From NCBI GenBank assembly GCA_965223665.1, contig OZ245011.1, positions 2,080,001 to 2,144,000 of the forward strand: a stretch of DNA of 64,000 bases, given 5' to 3'. The notes below the pieces were generated by a model, which saw only the letters and a list, made by a program, of their open reading frames with translations, did not search any database and was not told the DNA's origin. Source of the stretch: Nitrospinaceae bacterium. GTDB lineage: Bacteria > Nitrospinota > Nitrospinia > Nitrospinales > Nitrospinaceae. A program made the position numbers and the translations under genes. Positions 23,748-64,000 of this stretch are shown piece after piece (within the stretch, counting starts at the first letter, position 1; the number at the start of each line of letters is the position of its first letter).

Positions 23748-23852
23748 TTAGGAATCAAAATATACTTAGAGGGGAGATTATTTAACTCATTTTATTTTTC
23801 CTGGGGAGGAAAACCGCATGAAGCAGTCACTTAGTTTTTTCATAGGAATCAT
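23711..23852 (+). repeat. 142-bp perfect direct repeat (second copy 25155-25296)
   Basis: Base-by-base identity from TGACTGGGTC to AGGAATCAT, spanning gene end, intergenic region and next gene start. Confidence 0.9.
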
Positions 23853-25191: not shown

Positions 25192-25261
25192 TTAGGAATC
25201 AAAATATACTTAGAGGGGAGATTATTTAACTCATTTTATTTTTCCTGGGGAGGAAAACCGC

Positions 25262-26542: not shown

Positions 26543-26690
26543 CTTTTTAAAAATACTGGCCAGGGTTTCTCGTGACCTACGTTAAATAAATGGGTATACA
26601 AACACACATCAACTGAAACTTTAGTTAGCCATCAATATTTTTTGAGGGGAGATTTTAAATCCATTTTATTTTCCTGGGGAGGAAAACCAC

Positions 26691-28013: not shown

Positions 28014-28233
28014 CCCTTTTAAGCATCAGGCCTCGAGTGTTTCTCGGAGCCTGCGCTTGTGACAGGAACACGGACATGAACATCAACTGATTTTTTAGTT
28101 AAGTTTTCAGAGGAGACCTTTGCATAACAGTAAATTATTGAATGAACCGCAAAAGTTATGGAGCGGTGCCCTATGTATTCCCCCTTTGTGAAGGAGACCT
28201 TTGCGTAACCACAAAATTGGGAAATCCCTGAAT

Positions 28234-28266
28234 GTGAATCACCCCGACCCTCTTTAGGAAAGAGGG
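28234..28266 (-). repeat. REP/MITE-like repeat copy (inverted)
   Basis: GTGAATCACCCCGACCCTCTTTAGGAAAGAGGG is the reverse complement of copy 1. Confidence 0.8.
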
Positions 28267-28454
28267 CGAACATGGGTCTCCGTTTTTCTATTGGGTTTGT
28301 TTGTGAAATAGCCATTAGTTATGCAAAGATCTCTTTGTGAAGGGGGTTAGGGGGATTTTACCTCCAGAGGTTTTATGTTTTCTGACTTATGCAATGGTCG
28401 CGTTTCAGAGGGGAACTTTTTAACTCATTTTATTTTCCTGGGGAGGAAAACCGC

Positions 28455-29837
28455 ATGCCACGAACACTCAGCTTTTGTATCGGACTCATTTTACTATTCA
28501 CCAGTGTTCCGGCCTTTGCCGTAACACATTTTTTTACCAATCCGGACGACAGTTACGTTCGCCAAACATCACCCACCACCAACTATGGCTCTGAAAATGT
28601 TCTCATCGCCGACGGGGTTTCTCAGGATCCGAATAACGGAACCTATGGTGAGGTGGCAACAGTCATTCAGTGGAATGTTTCTACCATAATACCCTCCGAT
28701 GCGACTGTCACAGGCGTTTCGGTCATTTTAAATTTAACAGACTCCAGCACGGGTCCTTACAATATTTATTCCCAGAATAGTCCCTGGTCAGAAAATACGG
28801 TGGACTGGACTAGTTTTGATCCGGGATCACAAATACTGGGGACCATTCCTCCATCTACAATTGGTTTAGAAACGATTGTTTTGAATGCAGACGCAGTGGC
28901 CTTAGTGCAGAGTTGGGTCGACGGATCCAATTCAAATAGTGGGCTCGCTATTCGTACTGGCGGAACCAATAATGGAATTCAGATGAATTCCCATGAATCG
29001 GGCGGAACTCCCCCTACCCTGGAAGTGACTTATACCACCAGCAGTGAACCCACTCTGCAAAGTTTACAGGCTGAAATCAACAGGCTCAACGCTTTATTGG
29101 CTGGAGTGACTCGCAATAACAATAATATTCGTTTCAGTGGCGTGAATGTTCAAATTGATAACGGCCTCGGCGCAACCAACGGCAACCCCGAACAACCGGA
29201 TGAATCGGTTGATACTTTTGTAAATGGATTAGGTAATTTAATTGTAGGTTATAACGAGGAAATCAGACCTTATAGAGGTGATACTCCAGCATCTAATAAA
29301 AGCGGTTCGCATAACATCGTTGTAGGGCACGGCCATAATTATTCGAGTTACGGCGGATTAGTTGTGGGTAGAGATAGCATTATTTCAGGTCCCTATGCCA
29401 GTGTCAGCGGGGGCGCACAAAACATTGCCAGTGCACCCCTTTCCTCTGTCAGCGGGGGTTTTGTAAATGAAGCGAATGGAAATTCATCCAGTGTCAGCGG
29501 AGGCCATCAAAACATAGCCAATGAAGCAGGATCCAGCGTCAGTGGAGGCTCGGGTAACATTGCCGGTGGTCGTTGGTCCAGTGTTAGTGGGGGTTTTACG
29601 AACACTGCAAACGGTGGACTCTCCAGCGTCAGTGGCGGTCAATTCAATAATGCAAGTGGAGCTTTATCCAGCATAAGCGGAGGTCGTGAAAATACGGCCA
29701 GCGAATTTTTTTCAAGTGTGCAGGGAGGACGCCAAAACACTGCCAGCGGAAACACTTCGTCTATAAGTGGAGGAAACAATCGAACCGCCGCAGGCACTTA
29801 TGACTGGGCAGCGGGCAGTTTGTTTGAAGATAATTAA
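28455..29837 (+). CDS. DNRLRE/SxSGG-repeat protein, paralog 5
   Basis: Start moved to ATG 28455 after the shared GGGGAGGAAAA leader. Confidence 0.85.
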   Translation: MPRTLSFCIGLILLFTSVPAFAVTHFFTNPDDSYVRQTSPTTNYGSENVLIADGVSQDPNNGTYGEVATVIQWNVSTIIPSDATVTGVSVILNLTDSSTGPYNIYSQNSPWSENTVDWTSFDPGSQILGTIPPSTIGLETIVLNADAVALVQSWVDGSNSNSGLAIRTGGTNNGIQMNSHESGGTPPTLEVTYTTSSEPTLQSLQAEINRLNALLAGVTRNNNNIRFSGVNVQIDNGLGATNGNPEQPDESVDTFVNGLGNLIVGYNEEIRPYRGDTPASNKSGSHNIVVGHGHNYSSYGGLVVGRDSIISGPYASVSGGAQNIASAPLSSVSGGFVNEANGNSSSVSGGHQNIANEAGSSVSGGSGNIAGGRWSSVSGGFTNTANGGLSSVSGGQFNNASGALSSISGGRENTASEFFSSVQGGRQNTASGNTSSISGGNNRTAAGTYDWAAGSLFEDN

Positions 29838-30018
29838 TTCTATAAAACATGCCTTGAAAGGATTCGAGGTAATTCATGGTCAAGGCAACAGGGACGTTCT
29901 TTGGCCGTGAAACTGTTTTTATCATCTTAATTTTTAATCAAATTTTCAGAGGAGACCTTTGCATAACAGTAACTATGGAACAAAAAGCAATGGATATAAA
30001 AGAGGAAGCTGATGTTCG

Positions 30019-30051
30019 CCCTCTTTCTTAAAGAGGGTCGGGGTGATTCAC
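30019..30051 (+). repeat. REP/MITE-like repeat copy
   Basis: CCCTCTTTCTTAAAGAGGGTCGGGGTGATTCAC. Confidence 0.8.
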
Positions 30052-30146
30052 CGCCAGGGGTTTTATGTTTTCTGACTTATGCAATGGTCGCGTTTCAGAG
30101 GGGAGATTTTTTAACTCATTTTATTTTTCCTGGGGAGGAAACAAGC

Positions 30147-31415
30147 ATGAAGCCATCACTTAGTTTTTTCATTGGAATTATTTTTTTGTTTACCAGTTTC
30201 CCGGCTTTTGCCGTGACAGACGTCTTTACCAACCCGGAAGACAGTTACGTTCGCCAAACATCACCCGCCACTAACTATGGATCAGAACCTGTTCTCATCG
30301 CCGATGGAGTTTCACAGGATCCGGACAACGGGCTTTATGGAGAAATCGCAACAATGGTGAAATGGGATGTTTCTTCCATTCCTTCCGGCGTTACTATCAC
30401 TGGAGTGTCAGTTACTTTTAATTTTTCAGATGCCAGTTCGGCACCTTACCATTTTTACTCGCAAGATTCCGTTTGGTCCGAAGGTTCGGTGGATTGGAAT
30501 GATTTGAATTCCGGACCTGATATTTTAGGTTCGGTGCCGGCATTTACGTTTGGAAATGGAACTATTAATTTTAATGCCACAGGTGTGGCAATCGTACAGG
30601 GTTGGGTCGATGGCTCCCTACCTAACAACGGTTTCGCACTCCGTACCGGTGGAACTAATAATGGAATTATTATGGACTCTAAAGACTCCACCGGAACACC
30701 TCCTACCCTAAATGTGACTTATAACAACACCGGTCAAACACTGGCACAACGGGTCGCTTATCTGGAAAACCTTTTATCAAACGTTACGAAGGTGGGAAAC
30801 AATATTTATATTACAGGAGCCAACTTAAATATCCGAAACGGTCTTGGCACCACGAATGGTAACCCGAATGATCCTGATTCTACCACCTCCATTGCTGTGA
30901 ACGGACTGGGTAATCTGATTGTCGGTTATGACGAAATAATAGATCCCGAATTTCGTTCTTCTAATAAGTCCGGTTCTCATAATATTGTGATAGGCCATGG
31001 ACACAATTATTCCAGTGTCGGTGGTTTAATCGCTGGGATGGACAATGTGGTTTCTGGACCCTATTCTACCGTCTCTGCGGGATTACGTAATGAAGCCAGT
31101 GGTGAACAAGCCAGTGTCAGTGGCGGTGTAAGAAATTTAGCAAGAGGCAGACTTTCAAGTGTGAGTGGAGGATCTGTTAATGATGCCAGTGGTGTTTCTG
31201 CCAGCGTGAGTGGAGGGGAACAAAATGAAGCCGGAGGAGGCCATTCAAGTATTAGTGGTGGCTTTAGCAATACAACCAGTGGTGTTAACTCCAGTATTAC
31301 CGGTGGATTTGAAAATGAAGCTCAGGCAACCTACTCCACGGTGAGCGGGGGGTCCCTTAGAACAGCACCCGGAACTTATGACTGGGTCGCCGGGAGTTTG
31401 TTTGAGGATCAATAA
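30147..31415 (+). CDS. DNRLRE/SxSGG-repeat protein, paralog 6
   Basis: Start moved to ATG 30147 after the shared leader/SD. Confidence 0.85.
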   Translation: MKPSLSFFIGIIFLFTSFPAFAVTDVFTNPEDSYVRQTSPATNYGSEPVLIADGVSQDPDNGLYGEIATMVKWDVSSIPSGVTITGVSVTFNFSDASSAPYHFYSQDSVWSEGSVDWNDLNSGPDILGSVPAFTFGNGTINFNATGVAIVQGWVDGSLPNNGFALRTGGTNNGIIMDSKDSTGTPPTLNVTYNNTGQTLAQRVAYLENLLSNVTKVGNNIYITGANLNIRNGLGTTNGNPNDPDSTTSIAVNGLGNLIVGYDEIIDPEFRSSNKSGSHNIVIGHGHNYSSVGGLIAGMDNVVSGPYSTVSAGLRNEASGEQASVSGGVRNLARGRLSSVSGGSVNDASGVSASVSGGEQNEAGGGHSSISGGFSNTTSGVNSSITGGFENEAQATYSTVSGGSLRTAPGTYDWVAGSLFEDQ

Positions 31416-31899
31416 TACTTTAATAAACAGTTTCGTTCCGGGTGGTTCCACCACCCGGTTGCGGAAGCGGAGGCCGTTGGCATTTCCTACCCATCGGCCC
31501 AAAATCTGCAATTTTTAATATAACAAACATGATCCTTTCCGATATTTTCTTTTGAGTAATCTCAATCCTAGTTTGTCTAAAAACAACTATATTTTTATCT
31601 GAAAAATAATTATAAACCAAGACTCCTTTCCGAAAAGCTGCTGAAAACCCTTCTTCTTCAGTCCATACTCGCCACCTGTTTCACCCCCCTTTTGAACCAT
31701 TACATTCATGACCGGTTAGAATTCCATTTGATTTTTTCGAGCTAAGGATATTTCCGGTTGCTCACCGAATGTGACAAGTTTCGTCACTTGACAGACCTGA
31801 TTCGGTATGAGTAAATACGGGTCCACTTCATTGAATACATTCAGGTTTCAAACCGTTGACCCTATATTTTTTTATATTTATTTTCCAAGGAGGAATAGC

Positions 31900-33183
31900 A
31901 TGAAACGAGTGTTTAGTTTATCGATGGGATTGGTAATACTGTTGACGAGTGTATCTGCATTTGCGGTGACGGATACATTTTTAACTACCAACGATAGTGA
32001 ATTGAGAGACACTTCTCCCACGCGAAATTATGGGAGCAATCCACTTTTTTTTGCCGATGGGGTGAACCAGGACGGAGACGCCAACGGAGTCTATGGAGAA
32101 GTCGTTGCTATCGTAAAATGGGATATTTCCTCCATCCCCGCCAACGCCACCGTGACGGGAGCTTCAATTACCTTTAAATATGCAGACGCCAGTTCGGGTC
32201 CCTATTATTTCTATTCACAAAATTCGCCCTGGACCGAAAGTACGGTTACCTGGAATGATATGGATCAAGGCCCGGTCATTTTGGGCTCTGTCGCTCCCTT
32301 CACCTTTGGAGTCGGGACCAGTGTGCTCAATGCAGACGGAATCGCCCTGGTACAAAGTTGGGTCGATGGTTCGGTTAATAATAATGGAATTTTAATTCGT
32401 AATAGTGATAACAATAACGGTATTTCCATGGAAGCTCACAATCAGGGAGGAATGGCCGGTTCCTTGGAAGTCACTTATACTGTAGATGATCAACCGACCC
32501 TGGAAAGCCTGCAGGCGGAAATCAACCGGCTCAATAATATTTTGGCCGGAGTGAAGCGCATTAACGACGACATTTTCTTTGATGGAGTGAATGTTTATAT
32601 TCGAAATGGTCTGGGTGCCACTAATGGAAATCCGGACGATCCCATTAATGGTGCACCTGGAATTGCTCAGGTAAATGGACTTGGAAATTTAATTGTGGGA
32701 TATAACCTGGAAAATGATGTCATTCCCTCCGATAGATCTGGTTCTCATAATATTGTTTTGGGAGACGCTCACAGTTATACCAACTACGGAGGGATGGTTA
32801 CTGGATTTCGAAATCTTGTATCCGCTCCAAATGCTATGGTTATTGGAGGAGTAAACAATATTGCCGATGGACATCATTCATTTATCGGGGGTGGAACCAG
32901 CAACAAAACAATGGGCGGTTATTCAAACATTTCCGGGGGTTCTGGAAATACAGCAAATGGAGATATGGCAAGCATTTCAGGCGGATCCGGCAATCAGGCC
33001 AATGGCAACACCTCTTTTATTGGTGGAGGCAGCCAAAATACAACCAATGGATTTAATTCTAATGTAACAGGAGGACGAAGAAACATCGCTGACGGTAACT
33101 ACTCAACTGTCAGTGGCGGGGCGGACCGAACCGCCGCAGGCGAGGATGACTGGGTTGCCGGGAGTTTGTTTGAAGATTTTTAG
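31900..33183 (+). CDS. DNRLRE/SxSGG-repeat protein, paralog 7 (more divergent)
   Basis: ATG 31900 with AGGAGG SD; ends DWVAGSLFEDF. Confidence 0.85.
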   Translation: MKRVFSLSMGLVILLTSVSAFAVTDTFLTTNDSELRDTSPTRNYGSNPLFFADGVNQDGDANGVYGEVVAIVKWDISSIPANATVTGASITFKYADASSGPYYFYSQNSPWTESTVTWNDMDQGPVILGSVAPFTFGVGTSVLNADGIALVQSWVDGSVNNNGILIRNSDNNNGISMEAHNQGGMAGSLEVTYTVDDQPTLESLQAEINRLNNILAGVKRINDDIFFDGVNVYIRNGLGATNGNPDDPINGAPGIAQVNGLGNLIVGYNLENDVIPSDRSGSHNIVLGDAHSYTNYGGMVTGFRNLVSAPNAMVIGGVNNIADGHHSFIGGGTSNKTMGGYSNISGGSGNTANGDMASISGGSGNQANGNTSFIGGGSQNTTNGFNSNVTGGRRNIADGNYSTVSGGADRTAAGEDDWVAGSLFEDF

Positions 33184-52081: not shown

Positions 52082-55021
52082 TTAAGAAACTATCGCTCTA
52101 TCTTGAACGCGCAACCAATTCGTCCCATCACTGAATGCTACGGTTGCTCCACCCGTTTCATCCGAAACATAAATAAGCCCCGAAGTGGTAGAGGCTGAAG
52201 GTAATGTGGCCACGGTATACTCGGGCAAATCGACATACTGCGAGGAGTAAGAGGTTCCTATTATTCCTCGATCGGTTACCCGTCGCCAATTGGTCCCGTC
52301 GCTGAATGCCACAGTTGCCCCTCCGACATCGTCAGAAACATGGATATAACGTCCAGCTGTTTTGGACATCGCATTCGCGCTGGATACTGTATGAACCGGC
52401 ATGGTTAGGTATTGATCCTGATTGGGTTCATTAATGACAGGAACTGTTTTTCGGCCTCCATCAGTTTGAGAAAAGGCAATGGCTCCCTTACCACCATCGG
52501 CGTCATCGAGAAACCAGCACATGCCCTCCATTAGAGATGCCCACGGAAGGACCGAATCTGTAGTGGTTTCATCATTATGGGTTCTGGTTTTCCAAAATAA
52601 ATGAGTTAAACCATAAAACGTTCGTCTTGCCTCGGTATTGGATTCATTTGTGATTCCCAGCCCATTGCCCCAATGAAGTTTTCCGCGGTTAGAATCCACC
52701 GAACCTTCATTATGTCGCATCCCAAAAATACCTACATTTGCGCAAGTTTGAAAATCGACATAACAACTGCTGTCTTCTGCAACGTAACCATAAATCATGT
52801 TATTAATATTAACCTGGTTTGATTCCGGGCCGAATTTACTTTTTATATAAATCCCTGTATCACGGGTGAATGCATAATTGATATCTTCGTCTCCTGAAAC
52901 GGTAATAACCGTTTCGGGTGTAATGCTTCCGGAAACCACCGTAAAGTTACAGGAACCCGATCCAACACTGGTCAATTGAACTCTGACATTCGCGTTCAAA
53001 CCCAAATTAATTGTAAGGTGATCGCCCACTCCCAATTGAGTTGTGTCAAAGTCGGCTCCATTGGAATCAATGCTGGAAGCATTTACATCCACAGAAGTGG
53101 GTTCAGCTAAAAACAAAGGATTGGCCGGTGAGGACCCTGAGATAATACCTTCCGTCATGTGGTCGGCAGAATACCCAATGATTTGAAGAGTGTCGGCCTG
53201 ATGAACCACAATCCCTAAATGGCCCCATCGACTGGTGCAACCAATTAACCGGTGCCGGGTCGAACCTTTGTGCCGGCTGGGATCGGTGCTTCCCCAACTT
53301 GGATCATAAAAGAAAAATCCAACAGCAACCTCAATGGTTTTCACGTTTTCAATGTAATCCCAATAACTTCCCTCGGTGGTTCCCGCGACCACTACACCCA
53401 CGCTGGCATTAACAACCAGGATGTCTCTCAGAGTGTTGTGCACTCCATAGCTTGTAGAATTTTCACCGGATACTGTTAAGCTGTTCCAGGCTATGGTTTC
53501 ATTAGCCGCTACATTTGCTACCGTGAGGGTTCTACGATCTGAAGAAAGAGCCGTCGAAACATAAGCGAGATCATTCGTTCCACCAGCAGTCCCGGAAATA
53601 TCGTAAGTGTCTCCAATTTCTCCTAACCAATAACTTCCGGAAGGCAGGGTGATAGTATTTGCCGTGCTGTCAAAAGTGACATTCGGGTTTTGCCCCGGAG
53701 TAATCGCGGCGGGCCAGAAATCTCCATTGGTTTGAAGGCTGGGAGGAACCAGACCCACACCAATCATATTTTTTGCATAATCCCGTCGATCGGTTTCCAT
53801 ATCAATCCCAATTCCCTGAACCGTCGTCTGGGCGGTGTTGATCCGAATCATCATCATATCCGAGGTCGGGTCTTTGGGTTTTAATATCGTATTGTGTTCT
53901 CCACCTCCCACAATACGAACAAATTTACTGGTGACTTGGGCAATGGTTTCAAAATTCATTTCATCTACATGAATCCCAACCTTTAAGATAGTACCGTTTG
54001 CATCCGGCCACTTATCGATCCAGGTCACCCCATCCAGATAATAGGTTCCGGGTGGTATGTAAACCACGCCGCCGGTTAACATACAGTCATTGATCGCCTG
54101 CTGAATTCCAACTGTAGCATCATGTGCTGGGTTATTAATTTGGACATTATAGGGAGCTTCCGTCACGTTATAGAACTGAGCGCCCAAACTTCCACCGCCT
54201 CCCCCGCCGCTGGCGTTGATGGTGATGTCGTCCGCATTATTATCGATGGTGACGTTACTCCCTCCGATGATGCTTTTAATCGGCGTGTCCGATCCGACTT
54301 TGGACTTCACCAGCCCGGCACCTGACCCGCTATTGGAGTTTGTGTTGATCTCAGCGGTCGTATTGACCGTCACCTCGCTGGTGTCGTCACTGACGTTGAT
54401 CAGGTTACCGCCCTGAATGGTTTTCATCTCAAAATCGACACCCGATTTTTGTTTAAAGACCTGACCCGTTCCGGTTCCCACATTGGACATGGTGTTTTGC
54501 TCTCCCACCTCAACATCACTCGCCACAGCAGGATCTCCGTTCGAATCAAACATGAGAAACTTATCCGCACGCAGCGTTTTTGTCGGAAGCTCGGTATTGG
54601 AACTTCCATCGGACACCGGTATCGTGACGGAACGTCCTGCTTTTTCAAAAGCGCGTCGTGCCAGTTGTGTGTTTTTGTCCAATGCGTTTTCGACGACCTG
54701 CGGATTGAAACCGCCACCGATGGTCAGGTCTTCCTGCTGAGTGAACGGCGGTTGATAAATGAGGTTCAACTTTTCGCCGCTGGGTAAAGGCGATCCTATG
54801 ACGGGATAGGTGAGAGTGCCTCCGGGATTCTGATCCTGGTCGGGATTCAACGTCAGCGAAAAATCCGAATCCAGCACTAACGTGTCATCATCGATACCCG
54901 CCGCGTTGGTATGAATGACCTGCGCTTTGGTTTTATCGACAATTTTTGTGGTGATGGGCCAGGACGTGGTAACCCCGTTGCCTAAAAAAGGACCGTCCTT
55001 AATATTCTCATTGGTGATCAT
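52082..55021 (-). CDS. Podophage-type tail fibre/tailspike (T7 gp17-like anchor, pectate-lyase-like beta-helix, duplicated C-terminal module)
   Basis: ATG 55021 with GGAG SD; GNGVTTSWP...FNPQVVENALDK; DATVGIQQAIND...VVYIPPGTY; two VSDxxGGATVAFSDGTNW units. Confidence 0.85.
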   Translation of the reverse strand: MITNENIKDGPFLGNGVTTSWPITTKIVDKTKAQVIHTNAAGIDDDTLVLDSDFSLTLNPDQDQNPGGTLTYPVIGSPLPSGEKLNLIYQPPFTQQEDLTIGGGFNPQVVENALDKNTQLARRAFEKAGRSVTIPVSDGSSNTELPTKTLRADKFLMFDSNGDPAVASDVEVGEQNTMSNVGTGTGQVFKQKSGVDFEMKTIQGGNLINVSDDTSEVTVNTTAEINTNSNSGSGAGLVKSKVGSDTPIKSIIGGSNVTIDNNADDITINASGGGGGGSLGAQFYNVTEAPYNVQINNPAHDATVGIQQAINDCMLTGGVVYIPPGTYYLDGVTWIDKWPDANGTILKVGIHVDEMNFETIAQVTSKFVRIVGGGEHNTILKPKDPTSDMMMIRINTAQTTVQGIGIDMETDRRDYAKNMIGVGLVPPSLQTNGDFWPAAITPGQNPNVTFDSTANTITLPSGSYWLGEIGDTYDISGTAGGTNDLAYVSTALSSDRRTLTVANVAANETIAWNSLTVSGENSTSYGVHNTLRDILVVNASVGVVVAGTTEGSYWDYIENVKTIEVAVGFFFYDPSWGSTDPSRHKGSTRHRLIGCTSRWGHLGIVVHQADTLQIIGYSADHMTEGIISGSSPANPLFLAEPTSVDVNASSIDSNGADFDTTQLGVGDHLTINLGLNANVRVQLTSVGSGSCNFTVVSGSITPETVITVSGDEDINYAFTRDTGIYIKSKFGPESNQVNINNMIYGYVAEDSSCYVDFQTCANVGIFGMRHNEGSVDSNRGKLHWGNGLGITNESNTEARRTFYGLTHLFWKTRTHNDETTTDSVLPWASLMEGMCWFLDDADGGKGAIAFSQTDGGRKTVPVINEPNQDQYLTMPVHTVSSANAMSKTAGRYIHVSDDVGGATVAFSDGTNWRRVTDRGIIGTSYSSQYVDLPEYTVATLPSASTTSGLIYVSDETGGATVAFSDGTNWLRVQDRAIVS

Positions 55022-55028
55022 GTTCGAC

Positions 55029-55164
55029 TCCACAAACAAAAAAGCCCCGCTGCCACAGGTCCCTCCTGTGGAGCCGGGCGTCGCGTTTGCGGTGGTCCCA
55101 ACCAAGGCAATTATTTAGTTTTCATTCCTTATTATTATACCAAGTCCGGCCCCATTCGTCTGCA
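55029..55164 (-). promoter_or_regulatory. Conserved promoter + structured leader/terminator, copy 1
   Basis: TGGTATAAT extended -10; GGGACCACCGC..GCGACGCCCGGCT-hairpin-CAGCGGGGCTTTTTT; homologous to 63220-63353. Confidence 0.75.
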
Positions 55165-55262
55165 TAAATATTGTTCCACACTCAATTTTTCCAACCTGCG
55201 ATTGGGAGAGGAGAAACACATCAACTATCCTTTCACATATAATTTTGATACAATCGGTAGTT

Positions 55263-55742
55263 ATGAAACGAATCTTGTTTACATTGTTAATGGCTGTGGT
55301 TCTGTGGGGTGGGATTGCGGTGGAAGGTGTTCTGGCCGCGGATCGGAATTATATGGTGGAAAATTGCGAGCGGTCGGTCGCCTGGCCGGAGATATTACGG
55401 ATTATCCGTTGGCACGCTCCTGAGCTCAAAGAATTCATTGAAAAAAATGTCAAGCCGACGCAAGAGAATCCTAAACTCACTGAAGAGGATCATAAGCAAG
55501 TCGAACAATTTGACAAAAACATTCAGTGGTACGTCTCCGAGTGCATTCTCTTGATGAAAGAGATCAATGTTTTGGTGAAAGCCGTGCATGATATAGACCC
55601 CGAGGAAACTTTTATAATTGGTTTTAACATTAAAAGGTCTTTAGTAATGTTAGATATTCCCTTTATTTACCATTACAATAAGAAATATGATTTCGTATTT
55701 TCCGTTAATTTTGCGCCGTTAACACCGGATAAAACTTTCTAA
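55263..55742 (+). CDS. Secreted hypothetical protein opposite to the tail cluster
   Basis: ATG 55263; signal MKRILFTLLMAVVLWGGIAVEGVLA; two Cys. Confidence 0.7.
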   Translation: MKRILFTLLMAVVLWGGIAVEGVLAADRNYMVENCERSVAWPEILRIIRWHAPELKEFIEKNVKPTQENPKLTEEDHKQVEQFDKNIQWYVSECILLMKEINVLVKAVHDIDPEETFIIGFNIKRSLVMLDIPFIYHYNKKYDFVFSVNFAPLTPDKTF

Positions 55743-58700
55743 CAAAAACCATAACTTCTTTGGGCAAATATTTAATTACTTCAACAAAATGATCTTCTAA
55801 ACCCATTTTGTTATTATTAAATGCCGCTTTCCTTTGAGCTTTTTCAATTGCTTCTGGTTTAGAAACATAAGCAGCTAGAGCAAATAACAACGGATTCTTT
55901 GTGTCCTTGAACTGTGGCATTATATTTTTAAACAACCACCACATCCCAGCCTGAATGTTGGTTTCCTGATCCGTCAGGATTTTTTCCGGAGTCCAACCCA
56001 GTTTTTTATTCTCCTCATTCTCCGCAATCAACTTAGCGGTGGCCCGTGTAATTCCCATCGGGCCCATCCGCTTTGCTTCCGGTTTATCATTCGGATCGGT
56101 TGGGAACCCATTCTTCACCATGATGTTCATCACCTGCGCCATCTGATCGGTAGACATCGACACCGACTCCTGAAACCGCTCGGCAATTTGTAACACACTC
56201 GCCTGCCGCGCCTGCTCCGTCGAAAAGTCCAAAGGCGTCGCCTCGGCTATTTGCCCCGATTCAGTTCTCTGCTGATCCTGCCGCTTGCGCCGGATCAACG
56301 CATCGATCAATCGTTCCATATGAGGCTGAATCTTTTTATTAAACTTTTTCACGAGTCCTTCTTTATTTTTTTCCAACTCCTCCAGAGAAAATTCAGCATC
56401 CACCCGTTCGAGCACCCGAGTCACATTCTCCGGTTTGACGCCCGGCGCATACAGCATGGAATCCCCAATCTGATAATCCATCGCCAACCGCGGATTATTT
56501 TTCCACAGTTCCCGCATGTCTTCTGCATTGAGTCGTGTGAGTCCTGCAGCAAAACTATTTGAGGAAGCTTGTTCCACTTTGGGGTTTTGAATCGATTCTT
56601 GATCCGCCAGCATTTCCTCATTAAAACCCTTATGAATTTTTTCTCGGACTTTCTCGTTATAAAACCCGGGTTCTCTTAAATTTTTATAGATAAGTTCATG
56701 ATTCGCTTGCGCATTTTTATGCGACCCCGGTCGGCGCATGTTGACCAGCACCTCTGCCATTTGAGTCCACCCCGGGTCCTTTCCGGTTTCCCTTAAGATT
56801 TTACCGATAATGTCGAATGTCGTTTGCGGTAACCCGATCAGTTGATCTAAAGTAATTGTATAGAATTTGGATGCATCTTCATCTTTCTTAGTCGGATTAT
56901 GCAACGCCGTGGGAAGCCCAACCAAAACATAAATTTCTTTCGGATCTTTCCCTTCCAGATCATCCGCCGAAACCCATTTGCCTCGGTAATGGAGCTTATC
57001 TTTCATCCGACCTCGGATCAGGGAGTTTTCTATTTTCGGACTCGGTGTGGTTCCCTTGAACAATTTAAATTTCAGGATATCTTTGTTATATGCCGATACC
57101 ATGGTATTCAGACTTTTATCATTTATTTTGAGGTTTTCATTTTTCCTGAGAGCTTTAAACTTTTCCAGGTTTTGTAATTGAGCTTCCTCCAGGGGCGGCG
57201 TGTCTAAAGGAACCACGATGCCGGGACCGGAGGAAGAAGAGGAAGAGGAAACAGAGGGACGTTTTCGAGGATCCGGTGTTTGAGCGGCCAGGATACTTCT
57301 GTCCCACAATATCTCCCGTTGGGGCGTGTTTGCTTTAACTCCAATATCGGCAATTTCTTCGCCAGTTAACCTTCTTCCCAACTCCTTTTCCTTTTTCATG
57401 ATATCTTCAATGACCGCAAACACATAGAAATCCTGGTAATCCGCTTCAATCTCTTCCGACTTTATCTGCTGCAAAATGGTAGACACTTCCTCTTTTTCTT
57501 GTTCATACGAGGCACGGAGTTCGTCGATATTAGGAACCTCTTCTGTCTTTGATAGTTTTTCTGCTTTATAAAGGTCGTTGGCCGCTTTTCCAAAACGTGA
57601 TAAAAAAGTGACAATGGAAGGAGGGGCCCCGCGTTCCTCTAAATGGAAATTCGTGTTGGCCAGCCTTTCAAAGCCCAAAGGGTTGGAGGAAACCGCTCCT
57701 CTCAGAAGATCCGCCCAACTTTTGCTGCGATTAAGTTCGATTAAACCGCCGGTGAGGTCTTCTTCCGACGGTTCCCTCGAAGCAAATGGGGAAAACGAAC
57801 CATCGTCCACCGTTAATTTAAATTGACCTTCCTGAGAAGATTCCTCCCCAAACCGATAGCCCGCTCTATCCTCCCATCTTTGGATTAACAATTCCTGTGT
57901 TTTACTGTCCAGAGCCAGCCATTGATCCAGTTTGGTAATTTCCGGTAATGGCACTGGAGTTTCCCCCTTATCAATGAATTGCCGGATATAAACAGAATTT
58001 TCATATTGCGTTTCCATTTTTTTCAGGGTTTCTTCTCGATCTTTATAGGCCATAAAACTTTGCGCCGCTTGCCGTATGTTAGTATTCGGCTCATCGGTCA
58101 ATGCCCGAATTTGCAAATCTTTCGGCAACGAAAAAATCTCGTTGGCCAACGCCTCCCCCGCTTCCAATTCATATTGTCGTTCGATCCTTGCTTCTAATAC
58201 CGCAGTGTCCGTTTCCCCAAACTCCTTTTGATGTGTCGTGAAATACTCCCGTGCCTCCCTGGCATGGCCGGTCTTTAACAGACGATCGATCACCGTCAGG
58301 TTCACCGTACTTAACACATGCTGCCATTCCCGGTTTTCACGTTCCTCCGTCCAACCGAGCAGTCCGGCAAAATGTTCCACCGACAAAAACTCATCGTTTC
58401 AATCTGCTCCTCACCCAACCGGGCCACCAGGGGAGCTACCGCTTCCGATCCCTTACCGGGAATGACTGTGGGATTGCTCTTTAAGTTATCTAAAATTTTC
58501 TGAAACTTTTCTTGGGCCGAGAAACTATATTCATTGTTACTGTCCGGAAAGACTTTTAAAATCATCGGATCGGTTTTTCGTCGCAACTTGAGCGAATCCA
58601 GTCGCGGCATTTTCAGGTGCTGTTCCATAATATTGCGGAGGGTGATGGGTTGATCCATTTCCCGCAATTGTTTTCCGAAATGCCAGAGGCGCGGGCCATG

Positions 58701-58837
58701 AGACTTCCTTCCTGTTTTAAACTTTCTACCGTTTCGTTTTCTGTGTTGGCTTTCAGGGTGGATTCATCCACCGGATTGTCCTGCGATAGCTTGGCACTGT
58801 TTTGACCGGTTTGTTGTTTTCTTATTTTTATTCCCAT
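55705..58837 (-). CDS. Large internal-virion/ejection-like protein with degenerate SLT domain, split by two 1-nt frameshifts
   Basis: ORFs 58837-58613, 58667-58311 and 58386-55705 join when one base is added to runs 58671-58674 and 58397-58399; C-terminal NIQAG/ALAAY SLT-like motifs. Confidence 0.65.
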
Positions 58838-59139
58838 AAGGTTTCAGTTCTCAATTGGTTTTTGGTTTGAAAATATGAAGAGATTGGGAGTTTTCTTCCC
58901 TGAAGAATGGTGTAAAATCCGATTGGATCCCTTATTTTTTTGCTGGAGGTCAATTACCCCGGCCCGGCCCCTGGCCGGCGGAACCATAATATTCGGGACT
59001 CTCTTTTTACCGGAAAAATTTCCCGTTTCAAATGGCCTATATATATAATGAACAAACTCGTGATTTTTTTCTGGTTTAGCGGCAAATTGAGTCGTTTTCT
59101 GCCTCTTTCCGACGCCAAATTCGGGTAAAAAATCGAGTT

Positions 59140-59631
59140 TTAAGCTGATTTTTCCAGGAAGAGATGCTCTGCACCAGAAGCTGGGATTTCTTTTGTGGTT
59201 ATATACCCCTTCGTGGCGTACCCCAGTTTCTCGTAAATTCCCAGGGTACGCTTCGCTTCCACTTCGGTACTGATTCCCAATGTGATGACGCGTGCCCCGT
59301 TGTCTTCGGCCCACTGTTCAAATACTTTGATCAGTCGAACGCCCAGCGATCCGCCGCGGTGCTCCGGCACAACGTACACTGCCAAATCGGAGGCCATCAA
59401 ATCGTATCCGAAATAATGTTCGGTTATAAAACCAATCATCATCCCCACCGCTTCACCTTCCTTTTCAGCAATAAAGATACTGCCGGAGGGAATCAAAGCT
59501 TCTCCCAACTGTCTGCACTTGTCCTCACTGAAATCCATCATGCGAAAACGCGGACTTTCCTGATGCATGCGTTTGCCCATTTCCATGAGCATCGGAATGT
59601 CGTCCAACGTCGCCTGCCGTATATTAGCCAC
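59140..59631 (-). CDS. GNAT acetyltransferase at the podophage tail-module position
   Basis: GTG 59631 overlaps the upstream stop; IRQATLDDIP, YVVPEHRGGSLGVRLI, YEKLGY. Confidence 0.85.
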   Translation of the reverse strand: MANIRQATLDDIPMLMEMGKRMHQESPRFRMMDFSEDKCRQLGEALIPSGSIFIAEKEGEAVGMMIGFITEHYFGYDLMASDLAVYVVPEHRGGSLGVRLIKVFEQWAEDNGARVITLGISTEVEAKRTLGIYEKLGYATKGYITTKEIPASGAEHLFLEKSA

Positions 59632-62404
59632 CGAGTTGTACCTCCAAAGCCATTGATAAAATTGTGGTCGGCACCGGGTCGCGTTGGCGAATGAACGTTT
59701 GCCCCGCGCGATTCCATCCCGGGGTGAGCGCCACTTCAATTTCACTGGTAATCATTTCCGTGGGAAAGCCGTAAGGTTCGGTGGTTCGCTGAATGTAAGG
59801 AGACAGGTGATCGAAGTCCGGCCCCACTAAAAGTCCACGACTGTCTTTCACACGAAAGTACGCATGCGTGACCGATTTCATAAACCCCTGACCAAACGCT
59901 TCGATTTGCATCGCCATCGGCAACGTCACCAGATCTGCTTCAATAGGCAGTCCCACATGCACACGGCCACCGGGTAAATTAAACTGTACCTCACCGTCCG
60001 TCACCACTTCCTGCGAATCGACGCGACCGTCAGAAAAAATCGATACCGTTTGCCCCTCTAAATGATGCAGGTTGTTCACTTTCGATATCTTCTTTCGCAC
60101 CACGCCACCTTCTTCGTAAACATTGTATCCGGTTCCATCCACATCTTCCGGAGTGGTCACCGGCGTTTGCAGTTCAAAGCTGTTCGCATCTGAGTTGTTG
60201 ATCTTAAAGGTATGTCCGTTGAGTTCAGTCATTCCTTCAACATTGGCGATGATCACTTCGTCCCCGTCATTGAATCCATGACTGTTGGCGGTGATCACTA
60301 TGGGATTAGCCTTTGTGGCACCGCTGATGGGTTTGGGATCATCGTAAGTCAACCCGCTGTCCACAAAGAATGCGTCTTCCACTTCGTAAAATCGTCGCGA
60401 ATGCAACCGCTCGATGTAACGACGCTCGACACCGTTAATGGTACGTTTCACCAGACAGTACAACATGTTCTCGCCATTGTTCTCAGGAACTACGGCGGTC
60501 GACTCGAATGCACCTTCTAAAGTGTCGTGGCGGTGCCAGCCGAGAATGATCGGCTGTTGGTCCGGCAAGTAAGTACAGCCCAACAACTTGCCATCGGACC
60601 GCACACACCATACGGTCGAATTGGGATAACGCGAGTAATCCCAATCGAGAACCTTAAACCCGTCGATCAAATGCGGCGCGACCAGTGAAATGTCATCCGG
60701 TTTATACTTGTCCCGTTCAAAGGAGAAGTTAAACGTGTGCACATGATTCCCCTTGTCGGCAATGAACAAAGTGGAATCCCCTACCACCAATGGACGCACG
60801 TCGGCACTGCCAATGTGACTTTGCACCTTGATATTGACGGTGGTGGGAGTGAGCGCGTCTGAGTTTCCAGTGGAAAGTCGCCACTCGTTATTATTGGTGA
60901 AGACCATGAGATCGTTGAGTGAGACCAGGTGACGCACGCTGTTGTGTTGGCGAGATTTCAAACGCACCGTAATCGCGTTGTCGTCCTGCGAAGGAATCGA
61001 TTTGGTTAAATTGGATTCGGTTCCCGAGCGCGTCATCCAGATTGCCTGAGGTAAATCATTGGATGAAGCCAAACAACGGCGCTGGTCGTGATACGCTACG
61101 GTTCCCGGGTAATGGTTCGCCGCATAAAAGGGATCCGGATCAAACGGCGGCGTTTGCAAAACATCCGGTGTGATATTGTCATCAACAAATTCTAAATCGG
61201 AGGTTTGTCCGATGTACCCGTACAAACCTTTTTCCAGTTTGTAAACATTGTAACGGATAGCATTAGTTACCGGCTCCCAACCAATGGTATTATTAGCGCC
61301 ACTTTTTGATAAATCGTTTATGCAAACAGCTTCGCTGACAAATCCTCCAGATACATAGTTGGTGAAATTGGAAGAATCAGTTCCCGACAACTCAAAGGTA
61401 TCAGTATTCGGATTCAAAACGTCGTAAAATTGCCCGTTAATCCCTGAGGTCCCATTCAGTCCTGTCATTCCCTCTACTTCAGTAATTCGAATACGATCAC
61501 CATTGGAGAAAGTATGACCAACTGCTGTAACTAATAAGGGACTACTTCCACTTTTAGTAATGGTTCCGATTGCAATTCCTCTTGCAGGTAGGGATTCCTC
61601 CTGAATATCCTCGTCGATTGCTGTGACCTGATAATCGTAATCAATACTATCTCCTCCACCGGCCCCAACATCTGCAACCGAAGCGACGGTGATTGGTGGC
61701 TCAATCGATGGCTTCCAATCGATGATATTGAATGCCCAGTTGGTGGCGCCCATGCGGCGCAGTTCCCGGGGAGCGTAGGATTTATGAGTGATGGTGACTA
61801 CGTCAGCGCTTTGTTCGAATTTGAGTTGAAATAAATCCGCGGCAGGGTAAGGCGTGGCTAAGGTATACACACAAGCCGAGGTTCCCCCCGAAGTGTAGGG
61901 AGTATAACTCAGGCCATTAATATTGTTGCCTTGTAGATCGGTGAGTTCAAACGTATCGGTGAGTGGATTTTTGATTTTAAAGAACCGGCCGTTGAGTTCA
62001 GTCATTCCACCGACCCCGTTAATAAACACTTCATCGCCTGCCGCATAACCATGCCCGGTAACCGTAACCATTACCGGGTCGGCATTGGTGGCGGCGGTAA
62101 TATTTTGAGCCGTTTCCAATATCGTTGCGCCTTCGGTATGAACGCGCATGTAAAAATCGCCGAACTCCAGAATGTACGCCTGATCTGTATTAAAGATAAA
62201 CGGCAACAAACGCACAGGATTGGGGCCGCCGTCTTTCGCTTCTTTTATAAACTCGAACCCCGAGCGGTTCTCGGCAGGACCGGAAGGTCGTGTGATAAAG
62301 TTTCGACACCTCTCAACTCCAATCTGAAAGTGATGGAGATCGATGCGGCCAAACATTTCAGGAGCCACTTCGGCTCCGCCAAACGAACGTTGATGCGTAC
62401 GCAT
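59624..62404 (-). CDS. Phage tail tubular protein B / nozzle (T7 gp12-like) with three repeated inserted domains
   Basis: QRSFGGAEVAP, RLLPFIF, YILEFGDFYMR, YPGTVAYHDQR, GWHRH, VDSG, VHVGLP; three GH...GD...GMTxLNG inserts. Confidence 0.88.
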   Translation of the reverse strand: MRTHQRSFGGAEVAPEMFGRIDLHHFQIGVERCRNFITRPSGPAENRSGFEFIKEAKDGGPNPVRLLPFIFNTDQAYILEFGDFYMRVHTEGATILETAQNITAATNADPVMVTVTGHGYAAGDEVFINGVGGMTELNGRFFKIKNPLTDTFELTDLQGNNINGLSYTPYTSGGTSACVYTLATPYPAADLFQLKFEQSADVVTITHKSYAPRELRRMGATNWAFNIIDWKPSIEPPITVASVADVGAGGGDSIDYDYQVTAIDEDIQEESLPARGIAIGTITKSGSSPLLVTAVGHTFSNGDRIRITEVEGMTGLNGTSGINGQFYDVLNPNTDTFELSGTDSSNFTNYVSGGFVSEAVCINDLSKSGANNTIGWEPVTNAIRYNVYKLEKGLYGYIGQTSDLEFVDDNITPDVLQTPPFDPDPFYAANHYPGTVAYHDQRRCLASSNDLPQAIWMTRSGTESNLTKSIPSQDDNAITVRLKSRQHNSVRHLVSLNDLMVFTNNNEWRLSTGNSDALTPTTVNIKVQSHIGSADVRPLVVGDSTLFIADKGNHVHTFNFSFERDKYKPDDISLVAPHLIDGFKVLDWDYSRYPNSTVWCVRSDGKLLGCTYLPDQQPIILGWHRHDTLEGAFESTAVVPENNGENMLYCLVKRTINGVERRYIERLHSRRFYEVEDAFFVDSGLTYDDPKPISGATKANPIVITANSHGFNDGDEVIIANVEGMTELNGHTFKINNSDANSFELQTPVTTPEDVDGTGYNVYEEGGVVRKKISKVNNLHHLEGQTVSIFSDGRVDSQEVVTDGEVQFNLPGGRVHVGLPIEADLVTLPMAMQIEAFGQGFMKSVTHAYFRVKDSRGLLVGPDFDHLSPYIQRTTEPYGFPTEMITSEIEVALTPGWNRAGQTFIRQRDPVPTTILSMALEVQLGG

Positions 62405-62405
62405 G

Positions 62406-63023
62406 TCAAGACCTCCTTGCTAACATCGACGGCGGCATATAGTTTTTCAATCGCTGCTCCGGTTGGCGTGTCGCCTGTTGCGAGTTCGCGTCTTCCATGA
62501 TCGCTTTTGGCAAAGCCACCGCTTCGTAACGTTCCAGCGCCATCTGCGCGATCTGCGGTTTGCGGGTGATGGGTCCCGAAAGATACGATGCCAACAACCA
62601 GGATAATGCGGTGACAAACTTCGGACGGAATACTGTGGTGTCTTCGACCAAAGAGGTGAACGTCAGTACCGCCTGGTAGGCGTCGGTTAAAATGACGCGG
62701 CCGTGAATGTCGTCTCCTGCTTCTTTCCATGGGATGGGAATCTCGTTTCCAACTTCATTGACCTCGATTCCTTTAATGTAAAGGTTAGGAATTTTATACC
62801 GGAACAACCAACCGGAGGGCGGGTCGCCGACATCGGCCAACGCCAAAGTGCGCTCGGCGAATCCCCAATGATGCGCCTCCAGCAATTCTTTCAGAGCAAT
62901 CGGGTAAAACCGTGCACAATGTGCCGCTTGGGAGGTTCCGTCGGGAGGACTGATTCCCGTCACCTCGGCCTTATCGCCAAAATGACCTAACGCTAAATTA
63001 CAAATATCCACAACTGAAGGCAT
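62406..63023 (-). CDS. Phage tail tubular protein A / head-tail adaptor (T7 gp11-like)
   Basis: SVVDICNLALGHFG, LLEAHHWGFA, FVTALSWLLASYL; AAGGA SD. Confidence 0.85.
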   Translation of the reverse strand: MPSVVDICNLALGHFGDKAEVTGISPPDGTSQAAHCARFYPIALKELLEAHHWGFAERTLALADVGDPPSGWLFRYKIPNLYIKGIEVNEVGNEIPIPWKEAGDDIHGRVILTDAYQAVLTFTSLVEDTTVFRPKFVTALSWLLASYLSGPITRKPQIAQMALERYEAVALPKAIMEDANSQQATRQPEQRLKNYMPPSMLARRS

Positions 63024-63219
63024 AATGGGGTTCCTTTATGAAAAGTGTCTCTTTAACAATGCGAGAGTTCAGATTTTATACGGATACTTCCCGTTGGATG
63101 GATCAATGTTTTCATTCACAGGAAGTGGATGCCTGCTTTTGATTCAAGGGTCGTGGACTGTTTTGTGGTGGGTGAATTAAAAGGATGGATATGCTCTATT
63201 TCTGGAAAATCATTCCAAA

Positions 63220-63353
63220 TCCACACACAAAAAAGCCCCGCTGCCGTAGATAACTTCTACAGAGCCGGGCGTCGCATTGCGGTGGTCCCAGAGAAACCAG
63301 AAATTAGTTTCCATTCCTAATTATTATACCAAGTCAGAACGCATTCGTCTGCA
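63220..63353 (-). promoter_or_regulatory. Conserved promoter + structured leader/terminator, copy 2
   Basis: Same layout as copy 1 with compensatory changes in the inner hairpin. Confidence 0.75.
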
Positions 63354-63372
63354 AAAAAATTTTAATCACTAA

Positions 63373-64000
63373 TTATTTTTTTTGCGGGACGGCCTGGTAT
63401 TCCAGAATATATTTCTTGGCAGTGCGACGGTCGAGTTGAGTGTGTTTGGCGACTTCTTCATAAGTACCGAAGCGATTGTAGATTAAAGTGCAGTAATATC
63501 CCAAAAGGTCATTCGCACTAATAGACTTGCTTTTTATTTTATCGATGAGTTCCTCTTCCAGGGTTCCCGCGCTTCGGACCCAATCTCCTTGATAAGTTTT
63601 TGTGAGCAAAACACGCCGGACCGCCTGCTCCAGTTCACGAACGTTACCGGGCCAGGGATAGTCAGACGCAATTTCGTTTTGCAGGGTCTGCAAAACCATG
63701 TCTGCTAATGCTTCGTTCTCGTTCCCTGTGATTCGCGTGATCAGTGAAACCACCAACTGATCCAGTTCGTCCGGCAACTCCTGAATCCGCTGCCGAAGCG
63801 TGGGCAGAACGATAACATCCGAGCACAACCTGTAGAAAAAATCATCCCGGAAGTCACCCCTCTTTCTTAAGGTCTCCATGGAATGATGCGTCGCGGCGAT
63901 CACTCTTCCTTTAAAATTTTTCTGAAAGTGACCTCCTACCGGAGAAAATATTCTTTCCTCTAAAACTTTGAGCAGTTTGATTTGAATGGGAATGCTGACA
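63373..64000 (-). CDS. sigma54-dependent enhancer-binding protein, C-terminal part
   Basis: IQIKLLKVLEER, RVIAATH, FRDDFFYRL, YPWPGNVRELEQ, C-terminal HTH; continues past the right end. Confidence 0.9.
   Translation of the reverse strand, partial: VSIPIQIKLLKVLEERIFSPVGGHFQKNFKGRVIAATHHSMETLRKRGDFRDDFFYRLCSDVIVLPTLRQRIQELPDELDQLVVSLITRITGNENEALADMVLQTLQNEIASDYPWPGNVRELEQAVRRVLLTKTYQGDWVRSAGTLEEELIDKIKSKSISANDLLGYYCTLIYNRFGTYEEVAKHTQLDRRTAKKYILEYQAVPQKK

Follow-up and report, generated by a model that had tools for sequence, protein, structure and literature searches.

A repeated promoter and terminator-leader cassette before virion genes of a Nitrospinaceae prophage: a possible factor-dependent antitermination gate

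The stretch analysed here, a window of 64,000 nucleotides from the 4.35-Mb genome of a marine, nitrite-oxidising bacterium of the Nitrospinaceae (positions 2,080,001 to 2,144,000 of contig OZ245011.1, called C1 below), carries two copies, A and B, of a minus-strand element of ~135 bp that belong to a podovirus-type prophage. Each copy combines two predicted modules. The first would be a strong host-type (sigma-70) promoter with an A/T-rich upstream stretch, a CAGACG hexamer, a TG-extended TATAAT and ~25 conserved transcribed nucleotides. The second is a putative RNA gate of ~65 nt, composed of a 26-nt box, GGGACCACCG-Y-AAMC-R-CGAYGCCCGG, and a GC-rich terminator ending in U6, with a ribosome site and start codon ~20 nt further on. 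The gate is found before the tail fibre gene (A), before the connector and nozzle genes (B) and, as a third leader lacking a promoter (D), before the major capsid gene. We propose that this repeated prophage cassette gates virion genes by factor-dependent antitermination, and we assign this reading a probability of roughly 0.45; promoter activity, termination, control of read-through and the existence of the factor are what we infer from sequence and folding.

The original prediction had placed the two elements at 55029-55164 and 63220-63353, and both were recovered there with every part it listed. When A was compared by BLAST with the whole genome, 13 matches were obtained at E<=10, 10 of them at E>=0.15; B aligned with 80% identity over 136 nt (E 3.6e-27), and by this alignment A and B are true paralogues. 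From 5′ to 3′, the parts follow in the same order in both copies, namely the A/T-rich stretch, CAGACG, a 17-nt spacer, TGGTATAAT, the transcribed AATAAGGAATGAAAACTAAAT, a variable linker of ~14 nt, the box, a GC-rich interrupted stem, U6, GU(U/G)UGUGGA, and an ATG 16-19 nt past the U-run (Table 1). The box of A and B can be written GGGACCACCGC-AA(A)C/U-GCGACGCCCGG and encloses a 3-bp hairpin. The flanks had been described as near-invariant, and the alignment agrees: promoter, box and terminator foot are preserved and the changes cluster elsewhere, about half of the positions differing in the linker and the top of the stem. The promoter scan missed A because CAGACG scores 3/6, while a third promoter copy, C, is the best match of its region (10/12, with TG); no other promoter for the downstream virion genes is visible in these scans. 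A leader peptide was considered and rejected, since the frame opened by the ATG in the transcribed region has 4 codons in copy A and 34 in copy B, and C has no such ATG.

The covariation reported for the inner stem holds exactly, with three compensatory pairs that change on both sides from A to B (A-U/G-C, C-G/U-A, G-C/A-U) and one wobble that changes on one side (C-G/U-G). The hairpin of 7 bp with a 5-nt loop is present as described; it is merely the top of an interrupted terminator stem of 15-17 bp, in full GCCC.GCU.CCACAGG / CCUGUGG.AGC.GGGC. Intrinsic termination has as its canonical signal a GC-rich stem directly followed by U6, and the terminator-like hairpin that had been seen between promoter and gene has just this form by sequence and folding; for the terminator of A, the 65-nt core folds at -30.6 kcal/mol (z -2.7). 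In an alignment of five gates (four distinct rows, two genomes), 90.3% of the cells in the terminator and the small hairpin pair, a share that drops to 33-50% if the 3′ side is shifted by 1-3 columns, and some of the unpaired cells are artefacts, MAFFT having misaligned the longer upper stem of D. Five pairs change on both sides, and the observed covariation score was reached by 0 of 500 shuffles, a statistic inflated by kinship since the four distinct gates come from two genomes. A C-G pair of the small box hairpin in A and B becomes U-A in D, and their G.G mismatch becomes G-C; folded alone, D forms a stem of 16-20 bp. By these comparisons, compensatory change maintains the terminator pairing.

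Gate D was found when a covariance model (R1), built from A, B and the orthologue of A in a sister species of the same Nitrospinaceae genus, was run over the genome, a search that the original prediction had put forward with copies before head genes in mind. It lies at C1:2166655-2166738(-) (E 1e-5; orthologue in the sister species, E 7e-5), between the scaffold gene, which is followed by a 44-codon open reading frame (ORF), and the major capsid gene. D is placed 26 nt ahead of the capsid ATG, and 20 nt separate that codon from the end of its U6. D is without a promoter of its own and falls within the operon of promoter C, which is located at C1:2172648-2172701(-), ~470 nt ahead of the gene that opens the head module. 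The leader of C has decayed, with box and 3′ arm lost; downstream of the C-type promoters of the sister species, R1 gives weak matches (E 0.014 and 0.033). Because C keeps the promoter with a decayed leader and D keeps the gate without a promoter, the unit is, on this comparison, one of two separable modules. Each genome has three promoters and two or three gates, which coincide at A and B only. A and B do head tail units, as had been claimed, B standing before the connector/nozzle unit and A before the fibre gene; the notion of a device confined to tail genes fails, for one copy, leader only, precedes the major capsid gene and another, promoter only, stands at the start of the head module.

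The pattern of change between paralogues and between species suggests that the box is under selection. Among paralogues 25-26 of its 26 positions are identical. Between the two species, leader A shows 0 changes in ~130 nt from the -10 element to the ATG, its neighbours having 4 changes in the promoter spacer and ~6% changed positions in the first 110 nt of the fibre gene. The intergenic region of D has kept its box stem and terminator foot untouched; it differs in the flanks, in the small loop and in the upper stem, where an inserted base completes the stem. The promoter-only copy with its decayed leader and the gate-only copy amount to a natural dissection that marks the parts under selection.

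The distribution of the two modules is narrow. In an exact-pattern search of 120 genomes of the phylum, the box occurred three times in the source genome, twice in the sister species and in none of the other 118, and the promoter core three times in each of the two species and nowhere else. All further copies lie within the same phage-like region, and none unlinked to it was found. No Rfam family reached its gathering score over the whole window, and relaxed scans of A and B returned chance-level matches only (E 2-10, well below gathering). Viral contigs of IMG/VR gave no match with two patterns, R1 none in 28 related viral loci, and Cobetia phage Carin1, the closest named phage by capsid protein (65% identity), has no comparable repeat; the connector protein likewise had no relatives in the viral-contig search. 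Several candidates were discarded: the pattern GGGACCACCGC-N25-50-AGCGGGGCTTTT met three loci in metagenome contigs, all by chance (e.g., gene ends with ordinary terminators), and two in genome contigs, one a chance match and the other the sister species itself, and the R1 matches in four other genomes of the family (E 0.2-0.5), as well as a 32-nt BLAST match in genome G019, were taken as chance.

A hairpin with a T-run within 200 nt before the capsid gene is present in 0 of 27 related viral loci (the 28th, without upstream DNA, was left out), and D scores -27.3 kcal/mol in the same test. Given this result and the lack of R1 matches in all 28 loci, gate D is, by comparison with its relatives, an insertion, and the inserted segment carries both D and the 44-codon ORF. 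Two distant relatives among the IMG/VR loci, L073 and L075, have a spacer of ~100 nt before the capsid gene in which GCCTCC...GGAGGC could pair across the Shine-Dalgarno (SD) sequence; such pairing, noticed by eye, would place at this site a device of another kind, acting on translation.

In the proposed mechanism, RNA polymerase would by default stop at the gate, so that A and B would yield a terminated leader RNA of ~90 nt and, at D, the transcripts of the head operon would end just before the capsid gene. A trans-acting factor recognising the box would then allow the virion genes to be read, and capsid, tail hub and fibre would be released together. The pairing of CCGC with the GCGG arm, put forward earlier as an antiterminator, comprises 4 bp only, and a better alternative fold exists. 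When the nascent RNA is folded before the 3′ arm is made, (U/C)GGG pairs with CCC(G) around the 3-bp hairpin at -8 to -12 kcal/mol in all five copies, and this hairpin takes up the first 4-5 nt of the terminator arm, GCCC(G). Compared with the forced alternative, the complete terminator gains 7-15 kcal/mol in stability, which makes it the predicted default fold. The factor may stabilise the box hairpin, sequestering the start of the terminator in the manner of LicT on its ribonucleic antiterminator (RAT) or, alternatively, may seed an antitermination complex at the box, as at lambda nut sites.

RNA polymerase has to pass a terminator that follows a promoter (A, B) or directly precedes the capsid gene (D) if virion genes are to be expressed, and a fixed leak at D would leave scaffold message more abundant than capsid message, the opposite of what a capsid calls for. 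Because a fixed leak would be counter-productive and an invariant box overlaps each terminator, a conditional gate appears the most economical reading. Its chief competitor, which we hold to be unlikely and yet the best placed of the alternatives, is a constitutive cassette resembling the promoter-early stem-loops (PeSLs) of T4-type phages: a mobile linker whose fixed, partial terminator insulates modules and tunes expression, whose repeats serve as recombination sites and which needs no dedicated factor. The layout agrees with that given in PMC2839356, where a PeSL is a repeat of ~100 bp that combines an AT-rich stretch and a strong sigma-70 promoter with a stem-loop acting as terminator, an SD and start codon (here ATG) being on its 3′ side. 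The cassettes do stand at module boundaries of a rearranged prophage, and transcription running on from the sigma-54 activator gene upstream would be stopped by B as well. However, each terminator of A and B lies downstream of its own promoter, whose transcripts it would also stop, a plain terminator needs no invariant 26-nt box, the capsid-to-scaffold ratio just mentioned would be hard to accommodate, and the breakpoints between the two species fall in paralogous genes for SLT-family proteins and not in the cassettes.

Antitermination might also be processive, as with lambda Q, the factor engaging RNA polymerase at the promoters and the polymerase then ignoring the downstream terminators; the box would be a matter of shared ancestry. 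Conservation of the six promoter copies (three in each species) indeed extends from about -50 to +25 and takes in the transcribed AATAAGGWATRAAAACTAAWT, the terminator falls within ~90 nt of the start, as in lambda pR′-tR′, and D is inside the operon driven by promoter C. Such a mechanism nevertheless leaves unexplained why the box is invariant beside each terminator while the leader of promoter C decayed, no Q-family domain was found in the genome (PF06530, PF03589), and the gene directly upstream of B encodes a sigma-54 activator, not Q, so that we regard it as quite unlikely.

The same anatomy allows a reading in which the terminated RNA is itself the product: a small RNA (sRNA) of ~90 nt from A and B and, from D, an RNA derived from the 3′ end of the scaffold transcript, with expression of the genes behind being incidental. 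A strong promoter, an AU-rich 5′ part, a structured 3′ part and U6 are what an sRNA gene usually has, and the full conservation of leader A between the species would suit it. It is made improbable by the ribosome site and start codon that follow every copy after ~20 nt, by the virion genes downstream, which have no other visible promoter, and by the target search, in which complementarity within the prophage did not exceed chance (the best match, 12 nt in the coding sequence of the small terminase, with ~0.2 expected; in seed searches, ten-mers from the AU-rich 5′ part occurred too often to be informative).

A role in RNA processing, stability or translation seems about as remote. On this view the long interrupted hairpin would serve either as an RNase III/E site or to stabilise the 5′ end, the U-run would act as an enhancer bound by ribosomal protein S1 that boosts translation of virion proteins in high demand, and termination would be minor. 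In A and D the distance from hairpin and U-run to SD and ATG is indeed short and fixed, and the box of A and B has a second possible pairing partner immediately past the U-run, next to the SD. That outer helix is not kept in D, the real gene behind B starts ~190 nt further on, and a GC-rich stem abutting U6 is a signal unavoidable for RNA polymerase. The remaining probability is shared by other readings, among them a riboswitch, which is unlikely because the conserved part amounts to only 26 nt.

Several observations weigh against the factor-dependent gate itself. No antiterminator candidate was identified in the source genome: the two Q families gave 0 matches each, with controls positive in E. 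coli, the CAT_RBD domain (PF03123) gave 0 matches, with the control positive in 4 of 14 genomes, and NusG (PF02357) is represented by a single gene, far from the element (C1:2737829-2738140), with no second, specialised NusG of the RfaH/LoaP kind. The antiterminator helix can pair in 100% of the sequences and is invariant, with no covariation, which means that covariation neither supports nor contradicts it; the kinship of the gates, already mentioned for the shuffles, counts on the same side. Four sequencing runs contain the stretch and 0 of the 4 are recorded as RNA. Finally, the element of the sister species (its contig C13, ~2726433-2750040, against C1:2134188-2172894) is without ~21 kb; since connector and nozzle are gone from it, that copy may be defective, and its conservation may reflect recency and not function. 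For the ANTAR domain (PF03861), there were 0 matches, but the control also matched nowhere; ANTAR-type antitermination involves two hairpins with hexaloops, and the gate loops are of 3-5 nt.

The 44-codon ORF (C1:2166755-2166889(-)), located between the scaffold gene and D, deserves mention at this point. It is an orphan whose ATG overlaps the scaffold stop codon, and the sister species encodes the same protein sequence, although five codons differ synonymously and the stop codon has changed from TAG to TAA. No Pfam or PHROG family and no homologue was found for the protein (atlas scores <0.8). A single-sequence AlphaFold2 model has a helix and a beta-hairpin with a predicted local distance difference test (pLDDT) score of 76.5, and a Foldseek search of the PDB with it returned nothing at E<=0.001. 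It is a long shot that this protein, inserted together with D, is the box-binding factor of a self-contained antitermination circuit, made from promoter C, which has no terminator of its own, along with portal and scaffold; it would then open D, B and A as a feed-forward timer, with portal and scaffold coming first and capsid, tail hub and fibre afterwards.

The positions of the predicted parts of A and B and of the genes behind them are collected in Table 1. The spacer after B contains no convincing ORF or structure.

Table 1. Parts of cassettes A and B and the genes behind them, in window coordinates.
Feature	Position	Strand	Remarks
A, promoter module	55134..55190	-	Predicted; A/T-rich stretch, -35-like CAGACG 55157-55162, 17-nt spacer, TG-extended -10 TGGTATAAT 55134-55142
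A, initially transcribed region AATAAGGAATGAAAACTAAAT and variable linker	55100..55133	-	AATAAGGAATGAAAACTAAAT kept in all six promoter copies
A, putative start	near 55126-55128	-	From distance to -10
A, box GGGACCACCGCAAACGCGACGCCCGG	55074..55099	-	3-bp hairpin CGC-AAAC-GCG; last 5-6 nt open the terminator stem
A, predicted terminator	55038..55079	-	Interrupted 17-bp stem 55044-55079, 5-nt loop, U6 55038-55043
A, inner arms	CCACAGG 55065-55071, CCTGTGG 55053-55059	-	5-nt loop
A, Shine-Dalgarno GGAG 55028-55031 and fibre ATG 55019-55021	55019..55031	-	16 nt after U-tract
Tail fibre/tailspike gene, 979 aa, behind A	52082..55021	-	N-terminus: phrog_1640, phrog_5510; tblastn to N-terminus of Carin1 gp31
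B, promoter module	63323..63385	-	Predicted; A/T run, CAGACG 63346-63351, TGGTATAAT 63323-63331
B, initially transcribed region AATTAGGAATGGAAACTAATT and variable linker	63290..63322	-	From alignment
B, box GGGACCACCGCAATGCGACGCCCGG	63265..63289	-	One nt shorter in small loop
B, predicted terminator	63229..63270	-	Stem 63235-63270, U6 63229-63234; upper stem CUGUAGA/UCUACGG covaries with A
B, ATG at usual cassette distance	63196..63213	-	Opens 5-codon ORF only; ~190 nt non-coding spacer, then connector gene
Connector/tail tubular A-like gene, behind B	62406-63023	-	phrog_394/phrog_376 (for the pair); tblastn to Carin1 connector
Nozzle/tubular B-like gene, behind B	59624-62404	-	phrog_394/phrog_376 (for the pair); tblastn to Carin1 nozzle

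The prophage reads on the minus strand, from high to low coordinate, as small and large terminase, arrays of paralogous genes, promoter C, portal, scaffold, major capsid, cement and internal virion proteins, followed by the sigma-54 activator with its divergent lipid operon, B, connector, nozzle, a GNAT acetyltransferase, an 893-aa protein, A and the fibre. A tblastn search of the genome with Carin1 proteins found terminase, portal, scaffold, capsid, cement, connector, nozzle and the N-terminus of the fibre. The Pfam terminase models PF03237 and PF03354 had no match, and a domesticated particle without terminase was entertained for a time; the idea was dropped because the Carin1 terminase query found the gene at C1:2180742-2182097. 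The prophage is rearranged, connector and nozzle being displaced behind the internal virion genes with the lipid operon (~10-12 kb) between. In the sister species the missing segment comprises small genes, the acetyltransferase, nozzle, connector, B, the activator, the lipid operon and one SLT-family gene, and it is flanked by two paralogous SLT-family genes; with the connector query used, no homologue was found anywhere in that genome.

Some further features of the prophage and its surroundings may be recorded. The nozzle protein has three stretches matching Pfam E1_FCCH (the FCCH domain of ubiquitin-activating enzyme; E 7.7e-34), and the acetyltransferase gene (59140-59745) follows the nozzle gene inside the tail unit. 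The sister species has a second, partial copy of the head region on a 16-kb contig, C9. Twelve paralogous proteins of ~160 aa, with signal peptides and two conserved cysteines, are encoded on the plus strand (e.g., window 55245-55742); most of their genes are convergent, with overlapping 3′ ends, with members of an 11-member minus-strand family (e.g., window 55705-58386), several of which match Pfam SLT (lytic transglycosylase), most of the others sharing the C-terminal region by BLAST. Further copies of both paired families occur at C1:2154666-2188037, and the array looks like murein hydrolases with cognate periplasmic inhibitor or immunity proteins within a prophage. At window 22557-33183, on the plus strand, seven tandem head-to-tail ORFs of 396-482 aa look, by their similar lengths, like another paralogue array.

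The gene upstream of B encodes a sigma-54 activator with a GAFTGA motif, and its stop codon lies 21 nt before the promoter module of B. The genome has rpoN, and a perfect sigma-54 promoter, TTGGCACAGTCTTTGCC, precedes the divergent lipid operon, whose genes encode a fatty-acid desaturase, a CarS-like protein, a PPDK-N/PEP-utiliser, a methyltransferase, an acyltransferase and a reductase. Activator and operon (C1:2143373-2155148, i.e., window 63373-64000 and beyond) are situated amid the structural genes of the prophage, and the block is absent from the element of the sister species. The activator was considered as a regulator of the A and B promoters and rejected: a perfect sigma-54 promoter stands before the lipid operon and the cassette promoters have no GG-N10-GC, so that, as judged from these motifs, the activator serves the divergent operon and adjoins the cassette without regulating it.

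Should the gate operate in the way proposed, it would be a compact means of joint release of capsid and tail genes in a phage relying on host RNA polymerase, with one short box per terminator in place of one antiterminator loaded at one promoter, and a defined 26-nt RNA motif would join the small set of known phage antitermination signals. If the cassette is a fixed attenuator or insulator only, it would be an ordinary PeSL-like cassette in a new phage group. Nitrospinota are poorly studied, and a limited literature search, at the level of listings, showed no paper centred on their prophages; the host-type signals make the proposal testable in standard systems.

Among known systems, the lambdoid late switch consists of the pR′ promoter, a short 6S leader, the tR′ terminator and the antiterminator Q. 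The present cassette resembles it, in sequence and folding, in having a host-type promoter followed by an intrinsic terminator within ~90-200 nt before virion genes. The initially transcribed region of the lambdoid switch has a Q-binding element and a -10-like pause signal; in the present cassette the first ~25 transcribed nucleotides are conserved in the six copies, with no pause element assigned to them. Unlike the lambdoid switch, it comes with three promoters and three terminators and not one of each, one terminator being internal, before the capsid gene; each terminator has its own invariant 26-nt box; no Q-family gene is found in the genome or upstream of the promoters; and the host phage is a podovirus-type relative of Carin1 and not lambdoid. 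In antitermination by LicT, SacY and BglG, the RAT, an imperfect hairpin of ~26-29 nt, shares sequence with the 5′ arm of a terminator that is more stable, and the bound protein prevents termination. The box hairpin overlaps the 5′ arm of its terminator in the same way in five copies, a likeness of design only, for the genome has no CAT_RBD protein and the genes concerned are phage virion genes and not sugar operons. Lambda nut (boxA and the boxB hairpin, recognised with N) and the put RNAs of HK022 are short elements past promoters, more than one per phage genome, that let polymerase pass terminators; they are not fused to terminators and act processively over kilobases, whereas the box is fused to its terminator, and no N-like protein was identified here and no Rfam match obtained.

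PeSLs (PMC2839356) are numerous, occur in hyperplastic regions of T4-type genomes, flank ORFans and drive early genes, with the stem-loop mostly within or upstream of the promoter; recombination between copies, with mini-circles and module exchange, is a further trait, whereas the differences between the two species studied here break in SLT-protein genes. The anatomical parts described for PeSLs are all present in this cassette, which likewise stands at module boundaries. It differs in being present in three copies per genome, before the capsid, connector/nozzle and fibre genes of a podovirus-type prophage, in having its hairpin downstream of the promoter together with an invariant RNA box, and in that its modules also occur apart. 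Because a defining feature of each system fails, the cassette is, by its sequence, a member of neither the lambdoid switch, the PeSLs nor the RAT family, and is best described as a variant of promoter-leader-terminator late cassettes.

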